A stretch of DNA of 64,000 nt from a virus (IMGVR_UViG_3300032227_001172:96001-160000), one strand, 5' to 3'; counted from the stretch's first letter, positions 1 through 4,596 are shown. Notes: generated from the sequence alone by a model not told the origin. Program-made: numbers and translations.

Positions 1-3000
1 TGTTCGTAGCTGTCGTAAATTCTTCACGTCCGAAGCTAACCCTCTTCTCTCATTCTTACTTAATGATTTACTATTAGATAGACCGAGATTAATTGGAGCA
101 GCGTCTGTGAAATATTTTTCTAGTGTATCTTTTGGTTGTGATGATCCTCCAGCTGCAAACTTTACTCTACCACCGTTATTAAATTTATTAGGATTTTCAG
201 TAAAATATCTCTCGAACTCAGTTCTTGCTTTTTCAAAAGAACTACCATCTAGTGTTCTTTTAACTTCTGTTTCTATATTAGGTGGAAGATGAAATAAAGA
301 AGATGCGTTTCCGAGTCCATCAGGAAAATCTATGGCCCTATTACTTTCCAAAGTATCAATATTTAATCGATATCCTAATTTTTGAGCTAATGCCTGCTCT
401 AATAAGGCCCCCTCAATATTGCCTTCTCCAGTTTTAGTATACATTTTTGTATCGTCAAAAGATTCTGGTTCTTTATATCGATATGTATCAATTCCTCTTT
501 TTTTTGCTACTTTAATATTGTCTTCATTATCATCAATAAATCTTTCAAAAGCTGCTAAATTATCTGCTTTTGCTTTAGCAATATTAGTTCCTAATCCTTG
601 ACTAACCCCGGTAACATCTGAAGTTTGATATGGTAGTCCGAATCTATTTAATGTTGTAGCAACTAGATCAGCTGTGCTCTGTGGTCTGGCTGTTAATACT
701 CTAGTAAATCTTCTAACGATTCCAGGATTTTTTTTCTCGACCTCGGCTAATCTTTGTGCAAGTCTTGTCGGTTTGGCTTGAGCTAAGCTATCCGCTACTT
801 TATCTCTTATAGAATAACTAGGAAGATCCTCTGCTCCGGTCTTATCAACCATTTTTGTACCAAATGCTAATGTTTCATCAAAATCTATAGCTAATGGTCT
901 AAAAGGTCCAACTATTTGTTTGTCTGTCTGACCAAGTGGCCCCAAAGCTTCAGTAGCAGTAGTATCTTTAGCAAAATCTAAACTGGTTTGCCTTTGTTTT
1001 TCTCTTAGCCTTTGAACGTCTGATAAATATTCTTGACCAAACCCACGAATCATAGCAACATATTTTTGACCATCAAGTGGGCTATCTGGTCCAGTACTTA
1101 GTGTCCATTCCTTATCTTTTGCATAGCCTATTGGCTGTAATCCTGCTATAGCAACTTTCCTTATGCCTCTTATGCGATCTTCTTCATTTTTTGCTGCTGC
1201 TTTAGCTTTATTAAGAATACCAGCAACAACCAATGAATCAAGTTTACCAGAAATAATACTGTCTTTTCTAATTTTTCTTTGTAAATTTCCTGGAATACTA
1301 ATACCACGGCTTTTTATACCAGCTTCACCACCAAGATCCGACAATGTTTTTACCATAGCATCAGCTATAGCTTGTTCGATAGACTGATCTTGTTTTTTAT
1401 TTCTTAAAGCAATCTGACCAATCTCTCCATATAGTCCGACACTTGTTGTATCAGACTCTACCAAGTCTCCGTCCATGAATTTTTGAATAATTCCTCCTGT
1501 GGCTTTATTTTTAGGACGAATTGGTTTGCCTAACCCTTCTATTATTTTTTGATCATATACAACTGCCATTTGTTCATCTAAGTCTTTACCAGCTATTTTT
1601 TTGGCGCCACGTATATTCCTTTTAACCATTTCTTCTCTTATTGCTTGAGATGCTCTTTCTAGTGCTTTGTATTGAGGATCAACCTCTCCCTTCTTGCGAA
1701 GTTCAGGTTCCATTTTTTCTGCTAAATGTGCAGTCATAAATTCTACAACACTGCCGAAAGGCGCTGTCTTTAAATTTATTCCACTAGTCGGTATCTTTTT
1801 GGTTTTAAAAATATCTTGAATAGCCGGTAGAACTTTTTTAGATATTGGTGCAGATGCTTCTGGAAAACCAGATATTCCATCTTTAATTTTTACAGGATAA
1901 ATACCGCCCTTACCTCCAGTTCGCCGCATACCTCTTCTTGCATAGTCAGCAGCAAGACCTTCTTTATTTAATCCAAAATAAGCTCCAGCGCCTAGTAATC
2001 CACCGGGACTTTTAGTTACATCTAATTCCTCTAAATCATGACCGGTACCATGATAAAGTGTTTGATCAGTTACTTTACCACCCCTAGGGAATCTTTGAAC
2101 TTGTCCTCCCATTAATGTGTCTGCTATCTGATTTGGCACAAAATCTCTAGATTGTGTCCCACCAGTACCTGTCGCAGAACGAGAACTAATCTCTACAGGC
2201 CTAGGAGACCATAGTTTTTCTCTAGTCAGTATACTTTTAGCTATGTCCGCAAATCTATAAATTTGTTCATCTCTAGAAATATATCCTGGTGGCTTGGGAG
2301 GATCTGCTTTTCGCCCTACCTCTTCTTTAAAAGCTTTTCTAATTTCATTTTCTACTTTAGTAGGTATATTGGCTATGCCTTGTCTTTTGACTCTACTACT
2401 AATTTTATCAGCATTGGTTCCATATAATAAAAAAGGACTATTCAATGCTTGCTGAAAATCTGGTAATGTTATATGCCCAGAACCTTTTCTGCGCATAGCA
2501 TTATTAAAAGACTGTGGTAATGCTATAGTAAAATTAGGTAAAACTTGTATATCTTCACCATTTAAAATACTTCTAATTCTTGTACCAATCACTCTTTGTC
2601 CAGATACTCGCTCGTATTCTTGTGGGGTTACTGGCCTACCATACCTTGTAGGATCTATAGCATGCGCTCTAACAGTAGGTTCTTGCGGATCATATCTTAT
2701 AGCTGTAGCATCTTTTACTGCCCGTTGTTTTTCTTCGTCTGTACGATTATCTTGAACTATAGGATACAATCCATCTTCTGGCCTTGAGTTTCTTATGCGT
2801 GCTCTTCTACTAACGCCAGCTGCTGTATTGCTGCTTCCCGCCATAAATTTTTGAATAGACCCACCACCATTATTCATTCTAACAAGATTACCAGCACCAT
2901 ACTTTTGTACAGCGCTCTTTCTCATGACAAACTCACCAGGAGTTAGCATAGCAGGAACACTGTCAGTATTTCCGGCACCGGGTACACTGCCACCTTTTGC

Positions 3001-4596
3001 AAAATGACGAACATAGCCACCACTACTTAATCTTTGATTTTGTGCTCCTGTTCTAATACCACCAGCAAAACCTCTACCAAACTGTGTTAATGCTTGAAAA
3101 CCTTTAATAGCAAAAATAGCAGTTAGTGCCGGTAAGGCTCCTTTAACAGCATCGGCAACCGATATGAACGCGCTTGCTAAATCTAATCCTAATCTGACTA
3201 AATCTTGAAAACCTTGAGATTGTCCAATACTACGAACTAAAGCACTAAATTCTTCACGAACTTTAGCCATCTGATTAGCTAAACTAAGTTGTGCTGTAGC
3301 AGCATCTTTAGCTAATGATCCTTGTCCCTGTTGAGCAACATTTAATGCTTGTTGTGCTGTTGTAAATTGTTGAATAAGCGGAATAACTTTACCGATCTGT
3401 CTAAAACCACCAAGCTCTTCAACGATTCTGCTAAATCTGATGTCTCTAGGATCTAATGAGGATAAACCTGCTGCTAGTCTTCTAACAGCCTCATATGGTC
3501 CTACGAATTTACCTTCAAGATCTGTTAATGCTACTCCATAAGATTTAAGAGCATTAATAGTGTCTTCTCTTTGAATACGAGTAAAAATAGTTCTTAAGCC
3601 AGTAGCAATAGTTTCGGCGCTTTCACGAGTAGTAGCTCTAACGCTTGTAAATACAGCAATAAATTCATTTAGTGCGTCTGTTCCTTGGCTTACTCCCTTA
3701 CTAGCAGCAGCAAACACACCACCAGTTCTTGAAATGGCCGTAACAATATCACTAGCTTCAACAGCAAACTTAGCAGCAACAGCATTGATACTGCCCAAAG
3801 CTCCTTCTAATTGACTTGCACTAATACCAAACTGTCTCATTAATGCAATACTGCCTTCTACAGTACTATTTAGATCATCAAACGATGGAGCTAATGCCGA
3901 TCTAGCCAAAGCCTGTAAGGCTATCGATGTATCTCTAGCACTCAAACCGGCCTGCGCCAAGGTTTGTGCCACATTAATCAAATCCTGTGACGCAACACCG
4001 AGACCCGTGGATAGTTTGGTGATATTACTAACCAAAAATCCAAGACTTTGTACTGGAGTATCTGTAACCTGAGAAACTTTTACTAGCTGTTGATTAAATT
4101 GAATAAAGTCTTGAGTAGCATTAGTAATAGCATTAGATGCTTTATATATTATACCAGTAACAGTAGCAAATGCGGCAAAACGTCTAACAGCCAAGGCTGA
4201 CTGTCTACCAAACTCAGTAAATTCTGACGTAGCACCACGAGTAGCCGTTGCAGCTCTGTTATTGGCTTGTGTAGCTTGGTTAGCTCCTTGAGCAACCTGA
4301 TTCATGGTTTGCGGAATATTTTGTAAATTATTCGATAATAATCTTGCAGCGTTACCTAGTTGAGTAATAGATCTCGATGTAGTATCTGCTAAGGTTCTTG
4401 TTTGTTGCAGTGTTCTATTGAAGTCTTGAAAAGATCTACTAATAGTATTAATTTGTCTATTTGTCTGTTGATTGATCTGAACAGTAACATTAGTGTTTAT
4501 GCTACCTAGCTGGCGACGTAAATCACTAACGACCTGTCTAATATTAGACGGTCCTCGTAGATTAATTTCAGCAGTAAGATTAAATCCTCTAGCCAT
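1..4596 (-). CDS. Tape measure protein with C-terminal enzymatic cargo domains (3'-truncated, >1532 aa; not in ORF track)
   Basis: ATG at 4596 with GAGGA RBS. The frame MARGFNLTAEINLRGP... stays open to base 1. It has an Ala/Gln-rich helical TMP core, the TMP motif FAKGGSVPGAGNTDSVPAMLTPGEFV (~3003-2926), then ART-like, HAD and nuclease-like motifs. It lies after the tube and chaperone genes. Confidence 0.92.
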   Translation of the reverse strand, partial: MARGFNLTAEINLRGPSNIRQVVSDLRRQLGSINTNVTVQINQQTNRQINTISRSFQDFNRTLQQTRTLADTTSRSITQLGNAARLLSNNLQNIPQTMNQVAQGANQATQANNRAATATRGATSEFTEFGRQSALAVRRFAAFATVTGIIYKASNAITNATQDFIQFNQQLVKVSQVTDTPVQSLGFLVSNITKLSTGLGVASQDLINVAQTLAQAGLSARDTSIALQALARSALAPSFDDLNSTVEGSIALMRQFGISASQLEGALGSINAVAAKFAVEASDIVTAISRTGGVFAAASKGVSQGTDALNEFIAVFTSVRATTRESAETIATGLRTIFTRIQREDTINALKSYGVALTDLEGKFVGPYEAVRRLAAGLSSLDPRDIRFSRIVEELGGFRQIGKVIPLIQQFTTAQQALNVAQQGQGSLAKDAATAQLSLANQMAKVREEFSALVRSIGQSQGFQDLVRLGLDLASAFISVADAVKGALPALTAIFAIKGFQALTQFGRGFAGGIRTGAQNQRLSSGGYVRHFAKGGSVPGAGNTDSVPAMLTPGEFVMRKSAVQKYGAGNLVRMNNGGGSIQKFMAGSSNTAAGVSRRARIRNSRPEDGLYPIVQDNRTDEEKQRAVKDATAIRYDPQEPTVRAHAIDPTRYGRPVTPQEYERVSGQRVIGTRIRSILNGEDIQVLPNFTIALPQSFNNAMRRKGSGHITLPDFQQALNSPFLLYGTNADKISSRVKRQGIANIPTKVENEIRKAFKEEVGRKADPPKPPGYISRDEQIYRFADIAKSILTREKLWSPRPVEISSRSATGTGGTQSRDFVPNQIADTLMGGQVQRFPRGGKVTDQTLYHGTGHDLEELDVTKSPGGLLGAGAYFGLNKEGLAADYARRGMRRTGGKGGIYPVKIKDGISGFPEASAPISKKVLPAIQDIFKTKKIPTSGINLKTAPFGSVVEFMTAHLAEKMEPELRKKGEVDPQYKALERASQAIREEMVKRNIRGAKKIAGKDLDEQMAVVYDQKIIEGLGKPIRPKNKATGGIIQKFMDGDLVESDTTSVGLYGEIGQIALRNKKQDQSIEQAIADAMVKTLSDLGGEAGIKSRGISIPGNLQRKIRKDSIISGKLDSLVVAGILNKAKAAAKNEEDRIRGIRKVAIAGLQPIGYAKDKEWTLSTGPDSPLDGQKYVAMIRGFGQEYLSDVQRLREKQRQTSLDFAKDTTATEALGPLGQTDKQIVGPFRPLAIDFDETLAFGTKMVDKTGAEDLPSYSIRDKVADSLAQAKPTRLAQRLAEVEKKNPGIVRRFTRVLTARPQSTADLVATTLNRFGLPYQTSDVTGVSQGLGTNIAKAKADNLAAFERFIDDNEDNIKVAKKRGIDTYRYKEPESFDDTKMYTKTGEGNIEGALLEQALAQKLGYRLNIDTLESNRAIDFPDGLGNASSLFHLPPNIETEVKRTLDGSSFEKARTEFERYFTENPNKFNNGGRVKFAAGGSSQPKDTLEKYFTDAAPINLGLSNSKSLSKNERRGLASDVKNLRQLRT

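Follow-up and report, generated by a model that had tools for sequence, protein, structure and literature searches.

What does a short peptide bounded by glycines do when it recurs between the domains of a giant phage tail protein? The question is raised by a stretch of 64,000 nucleotides of viral DNA (hereafter the window), which covers positions 96001-160000 of IMGVR_UViG_3300032227_001172, a virus record of 230,691 bp with direct terminal repeats. An initial annotation of the window noticed five copies of a peptide of the form GGx[VI]x[KRH]FxxG in the tape measure protein (TMP). Two roles were proposed for it: a protease cleavage or threading signal that releases individual effectors, or DNA microhomology for the swapping of cargo cassettes. 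We report here that this motif sits at each cassette boundary of the TMP, and that gain, loss and replacement of cassettes occur exactly there, with crossovers within the motif itself. The motif is very probably the standard connector between the cassettes of a family of giant phage TMPs and the point at which they are exchanged.

A glycine-flanked motif in a giant tape measure protein

The five copies listed in the initial annotation were all recovered at their coordinates by translation of a single minus-strand open reading frame (ORF) at window 1..4596. This ORF extends past the start of the window by a further 10.6 kb, and the complete TMP gene (G000:C1:85360-100596, minus strand, protein P0002) has 5078 codons. 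The protein is recognized as a TMP by PF10145 (78.6 bits, cut-off 33.2) and TIGR01760 (75.2 bits, cut-off 28.8), and PHROG TMP families also match the 5078-residue product. The list of five was incomplete: the ORF is longer, more copies are found elsewhere in it, and copies 1 and 2 are the flanks of a larger module that is described below. Copies 3, 4 and 5 consist of this flank without the module core and are referred to as solo copies.

A strict regular expression finds 4 matches, whereas residue shuffles give expectations of 0.000 for the part of the protein encoded within the window and 0.002 for the complete sequence; with the loose form, 5 matches compare with 0.011-0.025 expected. Using a hidden Markov model (HMM) of the motif, we counted 15 copies across the whole protein and 374 copies in 81 related TMPs, versus 0 in shuffled versions of the latter. 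These shuffle controls, for the strict expression and for the motif HMM, rule out chance or low complexity as the origin of the motif. No other ORF of the genome contains either the motif or the module. The motif is a peptide of 11-14 residues with glycines at both ends. The consensus of 105 distinct solo copies is h-[AN]-x-GG-x-[VI]-Q-[KR]-F-A-x-GG, in which V/I is retained in 98%, Q in 75%, K/R in 85% and F in 74% of the copies.

Cassettes are gained, lost and replaced at the motif

A way to check the importance of the motif, already suggested in the initial annotation, is to see whether the breakpoints of domain gain and loss in homologous TMPs coincide with it. This comparison was made with 80 related loci (N-terminal identity 48-75%, TMPs of 1958 to >4200 residues) and 116 full-length TMPs of 2800-7733 residues, about 190 related TMPs altogether, and the breakpoints do coincide with the motif. 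Coverage of the query by homologues changes at residues 578-600, 830-842, 1034, 1475-1495 and 1700. The conserved N-terminal backbone of the homologues stops at copy 2, past which the number of homologues falls from 77 to 14; it is 0 past copy 3, goes up at copy 4, drops at copy 5 and climbs again at the next module. In an all-against-all comparison of 57 non-redundant TMPs, 28.6% of the 18,428 internal endpoints of high-scoring segment pairs (HSPs) lie at most 12 residues from a motif. Motif zones represent 5.6% of the sequence, and the endpoints, which are not independent of one another, are thus 5.1-fold enriched there. The same cassette recurs with the motif at either end yet with different neighbours. 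When the 116 proteins are divided at the motif, the 675 resulting segments group into 310 clusters, with 53 different right-hand neighbours for the conserved core.

Comparison with close relatives allows the exchange points to be placed precisely. P0005 is 98.3% identical to the query over residues 1-841 and 94.3% identical over Q1032-4265 (Q, query numbering), and the intervening Q842-1031 is replaced by an unrelated block of 366 residues. The replaced segment is exactly the ADP-ribosyltransferase (ART) cassette. That copies 3 and 4 closely bracket an ART domain, as previously noticed, was confirmed, the ART-PolyVal-like block corresponding to residues 843-1029. Identity with P0005 ends after GGQVQRF of copy 3 and restarts at FM.GDLVESD of copy 4. 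This swap is documented at the protein level; nucleotide junctions come from other pairs of close relatives, in which nucleotide identity terminates inside the motif. Further along the protein, where the query has one solo motif (Q4250), P0005 has two motif copies that enclose a module plus about 750 residues, an arrangement that looks like the footprint of an unequal exchange. In P0006 the block Q830-1493, with motifs at both ends, is 82% identical to the query and the core only 63%. Of the 26 internal breakpoints in HSPs with an identity of 85% or more, 12 fall at a motif detected by the HMM, and most of those inspected among the remainder were found directly after weaker Phi-x-x-GG forms.

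The cassettes delimited in this way carry multiple unrelated effector-type domains within one giant phage polypeptide. Cassette D matches ADPrib_exo_Tox above the cut-off (27.2 bits versus 23.4), the ART-PolyVal match of cassette B is below its own cut-off, cassette C has a HAD fold, and two blocks with the HExxH signature of zincins are located further along the protein (HELRH near residue 4100 and HEAAH near residue 4600). Cassette C is the commonest cargo, present in 76 of the 116 full-length relatives. An AlphaFold2 model of residues 1015-1500, built with 26 homologues, has a mean predicted local distance difference test (pLDDT) score of 77 and a confident fold for residues 1049-1473. This fold includes a HAD/AphA-like phosphatase, in agreement with the DFDETL motif of the cassette. 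Both motifs, at 1034-1044 and 1475-1485, are located in tails with pLDDT below 50; copy 4 stops 4 residues ahead of the fold and copy 5 begins 1 residue past its last helix. In this family, the solo copies are the entire unstructured linker between independently folded cassettes.

Selection on the peptide rather than on the DNA

Copies 2 and 4 were noted from the outset to have 16 of 17 nucleotides in common (CCAT[AG]AATTTTTGAATA, at 2841 and 1473), and this match is exact. It could mean that the motif is a recombination signal at the DNA level, i.e. microhomology that is maintained for shuffling, with the peptide acting as a neutral flexible linker. Such a signal would also fit the extensive combinatorial shuffling and the crossovers of close relatives, which are located inside the motif at nucleotide resolution. 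However, codons at the conserved residues of the motif match the gene-wide background (76 instances), and identical residues across copies within the TMP gene do not share codons above expectation (14 observed versus 15.8 expected; 90 versus 79.4 in a second comparison). Selection therefore acts on the peptide and not on the DNA, and the similarity over 16 of 17 nucleotides results from the shared peptide IQKFM together with the codon preferences of the gene. Moreover, a neutral linker would not retain V/I-Q-K/R-F in 74-98% of the copies; these residues are retained down to relatives that are 25-30% identical in the blocks aligned to query residues 500-1900. Selection for DNA microhomology is rejected on the codon tests, and we consider it very unlikely that the motif is a recombination signal at the DNA level. 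Of the microhomology proposal, what stands is that exchange occurs at the motif; synonymous sites are no more uniform than the background. The DNA microhomology is a by-product that may still aid recombination, yet it is not what is maintained.

A module shared with lambda gpH

Copies 1 and 2 enclose a conserved core, TDSVPAMLTPGEFV...L..MN. Together they form a module of about 65 residues (GG motif, TDxVPAMLTPGEFV core, GG motif) that is present six times in the 5078-residue TMP. A profile built from 151 modules of the family matches residues 728-796 of lambda gpH with 27 bits (E 3.6e-10), and KFHFATGG and GYATGG of the lambda protein align with the two module flanks. From this homology the motif appears to have originated as the flank of a module of about 65 residues that lambda gpH carries once, near its C-terminus. 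The curated model TIGR01541 (332 positions), which covers this region of the lambda protein, scores none of the six module segments at E≤0.1, whereas lambda gpH 700-853 scores 146 bits. Thus, only the short module is shared and not the whole lambda C-terminal domain.

The module is widespread. A tblastn search with one module gave 163 phage records, and the 60 matches listed are mostly annotated TMPs. The module core is present in annotated TMPs of Gordonia, Mycobacterium, Nodularia, Ralstonia and other phages. In a library of 1.84 billion proteins, 30,886 clusters contain the module, which reaches 11 copies per protein and occurs in proteins as long as 7872 residues. No Pfam or NCBIfam model detects the module alone when module segments are searched, and a PDB sequence search with one module gave chance-level matches only (E>1). 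In an AlphaFold2 model of a single module (alignment of 134 rows, pLDDT 62.6) the helix alone is confident.

One match lies in SSCSM1_213 of Synechococcus phage S-SCSM1 (L087:4177-7029), which has one module at residues 584-649 (58.6 bits). This is a virion protein of a T4-like cyanomyovirus, annotated 'lysozyme' and encoded in the baseplate-hub cluster. The module is thus not restricted to siphovirus-type TMPs. The GG flank as modelled was not found in the S-SCSM1 protein or in a Nodularia phage TMP, both of which contain the module core.

Two forms of the motif in two cargo bays

The motif exists in two forms that differ in their position along the protein. Copies of the type GGx[VI]x[KR][FL] (QKF type) occur in the first third of the proteins, with a median relative position of 0.21, and copies of the type GGxhY[AL] (YA type) in the last half, with a median of 0.80. 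The QKF type precedes the YA type in 68 of the 69 proteins having both. They are separated by a transmembrane and coiled-coil stretch (residues 1811-2800) that is conserved in 92 of the 116 relatives. An N-terminal cargo bay, lying between TMP core and central coiled coil, has the QKF type, and a C-terminal bay beyond the coiled coil has the YA type. The existence of these two dialects suggests that the two bays have different partners or destinations.

Processing site or docking element?

Cleavage is known for just two TMPs, lambda gpH and T5 pb2, and in both it takes place within or next to the Gly-rich module flank. The lambda protein sheds a piece of about 14 kDa from a glycine-rich region, and gpH residues ~690-817, module included, are unresolved in the virion (PMC12617516). 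The maturation of gpH into gpH* and gpHC is credited in PMC12617516 to Tsui and Hendrix 1983. A C-terminal piece of this size would begin at about residue 711-726, just ahead of the module at 728-796. T5 pb2 is cleaved after R1127, which separates an enzymatic C-terminal piece from the remaining TMP (PMC10038345). In its context, VPR^AEGGMMYPG...GEHGTEVV, the cut falls 2 residues ahead of the GG. By analogy with these two proteins, cleavage at the motif is plausible.

The explanation that we favour is as follows. The motif serves as the standard connector between cassettes and as the site of their gain, loss and replacement, the peptide being conserved and not the DNA. The exposed peptide would be a recognition site at which a trans-acting protease, and not the embedded zincins, cuts the TMP. 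Cutting would release the cargo, in parallel with the cuts that lambda gpH and T5 pb2 receive within the Gly-rich module flank. Taken as a whole, with connector, exchange point and cleavage step, we judge this explanation reasonably probable. For the motif as a recognition site for processing by a trans-acting protease, which is argued from lambda and T5, we would put the chances somewhat below even.

TMPs exit the tail C-terminus first. From this topology the N-terminal bay would enter the host last, just ahead of the DNA, which agrees with its cytoplasm-type enzymes. Delivery of TMP cargo into the host along with the DNA is inferred from what is known of the fate of TMPs, and from gp96 of Thermus phage P23-45 (PMC10770324). 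A more speculative extension, which we regard as doubtful, is that giant TMPs could be true polyproteins whose GG junction peptide, as a descendant of the lambda/T5 processing region, is recognized by a widely conserved TMP-processing activity that cuts the TMP, once ejected or assembled, into a series of separate effectors. If so, the QKF and YA forms would address cargo to the cytoplasm just ahead of the DNA versus to the envelope or periplasm first, and the same rule would predict the lambda gpH cut site.

Several observations weigh against the favoured explanation, most of them against its cleavage step. The lambda cut site is unmapped (PMC12617516). The likeness of T5 pb2 is visual only: this protein receives no score from either the motif or the module HMM, and the short motif HMM gives no meaningful score on either lambda gpH or T5 pb2. 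Both of these TMPs are cut once and not at many sites, and the two dialects would require a tolerant protease or two proteases. Moreover, P23-45 gp96, the one characterized giant TMP that does carry cargo, has neither motif nor module, and no processing of it is reported in the parts of PMC10770324 covered here. With regard to exchange, breakpoints near residues 1226-1240 and 1380-1400, inside cassette C, have no motif. Finally, among 20 neighbouring ORFs (15 upstream, 5 downstream) no peptidase was found with PHROGs and Pfam, fibre-type domains being the only finds of this search. A protease encoded in cis or nearby and conserved alongside its sites, as in viral polyproteins, was thus not found. 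The prohead protease, named in the initial annotation as the enzyme to try, is an unlikely candidate, given that tails and proheads are built apart and that, in this genome, the motif is confined to the TMP ORF. A self-processing polyprotein, in which the embedded HExxH zincins would cut at the motifs, is suggested by the two such domains of the TMP, and MPTase autoproteolysis has been proposed for polyvalent proteins (Iyer et al. 2017, PMC5512222). However, of the 84 family members with at least three motifs, only 8 contain homologues of either zincin block and 50 have no HExxH string, and these blocks in turn belong to the variable cargo that motifs delimit. This rarity, which also speaks against processing more broadly, rules out autoprocessing by cis zincins as a general mechanism, and of all the explanations it is the one to which we give the least credence.

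Alternatively, the motif could be a structural or docking element that is never cleaved, for instance a short strand bound by the tail assembly chaperone, by the tube lumen or by other TMP chains. It would serve to align the three to six chains with one another or to keep the cargo transport-competent, and exchange would cluster there only because no other place tolerates a joint. The module and its flanks occur in about 31,000 TMP clusters, most of them without cargo, which suggests a general role in tail assembly, and conservation at the peptide level suits a binding site equally well as a protease site. The TMP-fused enzyme of P23-45 acts with no processing reported in the sections of PMC10770324 considered, and the position-specific dialects could mean two different partners. 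Conversely, AlphaFold2 yields no confident structure for the flanks, alone or beside a domain, and the corresponding region of lambda gpH is not seen in the virion (PMC12617516). We consider such a docking or register element possible but unlikely, though nearly as likely as a processing site.

Comparison with known systems

Lambda gpH resembles the present module in that both flanks are recognizable (KFHFATGG ... GEFVF ... GYATGGYVG). It differs in having one module near the C-terminus, no cargo domains and no solo flanks, whereas the TMP studied here has six modules plus solo flanks. In T5 pb2, the Gly-Gly/GE arrangement resembles by eye the N edge of the module, but there is a single site. 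P23-45 gp96 is a TMP of 5002 residues with an N-terminal virion RNA polymerase (PMC10770324). It is likewise a giant TMP with a cytoplasm-acting enzyme at its N-terminus, and provides an experimental precedent for TMP-borne cargo; it has one cargo domain and not a series of swappable cassettes.

Polyvalent proteins of phages and conjugative elements (Iyer et al. 2017, PMC5512222) also combine many unrelated effector-type domains, among them ART-PolyVal-like domains and zincins, in one giant polypeptide delivered by the virion, and have been suggested to be processed into separate parts. The words 'tape' and 'linker' occur 0 times in the text of that study, and no conserved junction peptide is described in it. 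Unlike in polyvalent proteins, the carrier is here a TMP and the joints are standardized.

The closest functional analogy is with polymorphic toxins, since the TMP works like such a system without being a member of it. In polymorphic toxins, junction motifs such as VENN of CdiA and PxxxxDPxGL of Rhs proteins mark the exchange point of variable toxin cassettes, and the Rhs motif is also a cleavage site. These systems have reportedly been reviewed by Zhang et al. in 2012. The TMP likewise has a conserved junction motif at the boundary of recombining cassettes, with no sequence similarity between its motif and the toxin motifs. In contrast to the single variable C-terminal tip of polymorphic toxins, with its immunity gene and orphan cassettes, the cassettes here are internal and serial, lack immunity genes and belong to a phage structural protein.

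No publication describing the junction motif was found in our literature searches. New here are the reading of the motif as solo flanks, the cassette swap located exactly in a relative with 98% identity, the tests of codon usage, the model of the linker, the finding that zincins are rare and the two position-specific dialects. The tail 'ruler' of a phage can thus act as a plug-and-play enzyme carrier with a standard connector, a phage counterpart of polymorphic toxins. For annotators, the motif is a landmark for dividing TMPs of 3000-7900 residues into functional units, and the conserved flank supplies specific residues to mutate in the tractable phages lambda and T5. The module, found in about 31,000 protein clusters and without a Pfam or NCBIfam model of its own, constitutes an uncatalogued building block.

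Features of the gene and its neighbourhood

The features of the TMP gene are listed in Table 1. Residues 1533-5078 of the protein are encoded outside the window (L002:1360-12000, minus strand). This part includes Gly-rich hydrophobic stretches and a coiled coil of about 750 residues, and the C-terminal domain of the TMP is kept in 64 of the 116 full-length relatives.

Table 1. Features of the tape measure gene, ordered from the N-terminus of the protein
Feature	TMP residues	Window position	Strand	Evidence or remark
TMP, N-terminal 1532 codons		1..4596	-	ORF translation; PF10145 and TIGR01760 matches
PhageMin_Tail / TP901-type TMP core	192-383	3448..4023	-	PF10145 E 7.7e-22; TIGR01760
Copy 1, GGYVRHFAKGG, N-flank of module 1	526-536	2989..3021	-	Motif HMM, 16.1 bits
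Core of module 1, TDSVPAMLTPGEFVMRKSAVQKYGAGNLVRMNNG, lambda-gpH-type element	544-577	2866..2967	-	
Copy 2, GGSIQKFMAG, C-flank of module 1	578-587	2836..2865	-	Motif HMM; coverage steps
Cassette A, without family match	591-829	2110..2826	-	Common to only about 4-6 relatives
Copy 3, GGQVQRFPRGG, solo junction	830-840	2077..2109	-	Left breakpoint of P0005 swap
Cassette B, ART-PolyVal-like ADP-ribosyltransferase	843-1029	1510..2070	-	Pfam 23.4 bits, below cut-off 31.2
Copy 4, GGIIQKFMDG, solo junction	1034-1043	1468..1497	-	Right breakpoint of P0005 swap
Cassette C, multi-domain with HAD-type phosphatase (DFDETL motif)	1047-1469	190..1458	-	
Copy 5, GGRVKFAAGG, solo junction, short form (one residue fewer)	1475-1484	145..174	-	
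Cassette D, start (cut by window edge)	1486-1697	1..141	-	ADPrib_exo_Tox-type ADP-ribosyltransferase
Degenerate double module	1698-1810	outside window	-	

Tube and chaperone genes are expected directly upstream of a TMP gene. At this place, the seven minus-strand ORFs of 97-365 residues at window 4681-10255 have no PHROG or Pfam match. They are preceded by an ORF of 1102 residues (10269-13577) with baseplate-wedge and tail-fibre PHROG matches. The minus-strand ORFs at window 13574-18823 have Laminin_G_3, fn3 and collagen-repeat matches and, from these, probably encode fibre or decoration proteins. Directly downstream of the TMP gene, an ORF of 1527 residues (L089:12749-17332, minus strand) has a near-cutoff match to the beta-roll family LbR_Ice_bind, and the four large ORFs after it have no family matches. 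The downstream genes, which code for large proteins with one sub-cutoff Pfam match and no PHROG matches, presumably specify tail-tip or hub proteins. Overall, the tail module of this group of phages has almost no annotation.

Upstream of the tail genes, the minus strand carries another giant ORF (window 18835-32604; 4589 residues), which contains neither the GG motif nor the module. In relatives with 50-75% identical TMP cores (L003-L082, P0005-P0249), TMP length ranges from 1958 to 7872 residues. If the whole chain sets tail length, the tails of these phages would differ about four-fold; otherwise, the helical backbone alone would measure the length.

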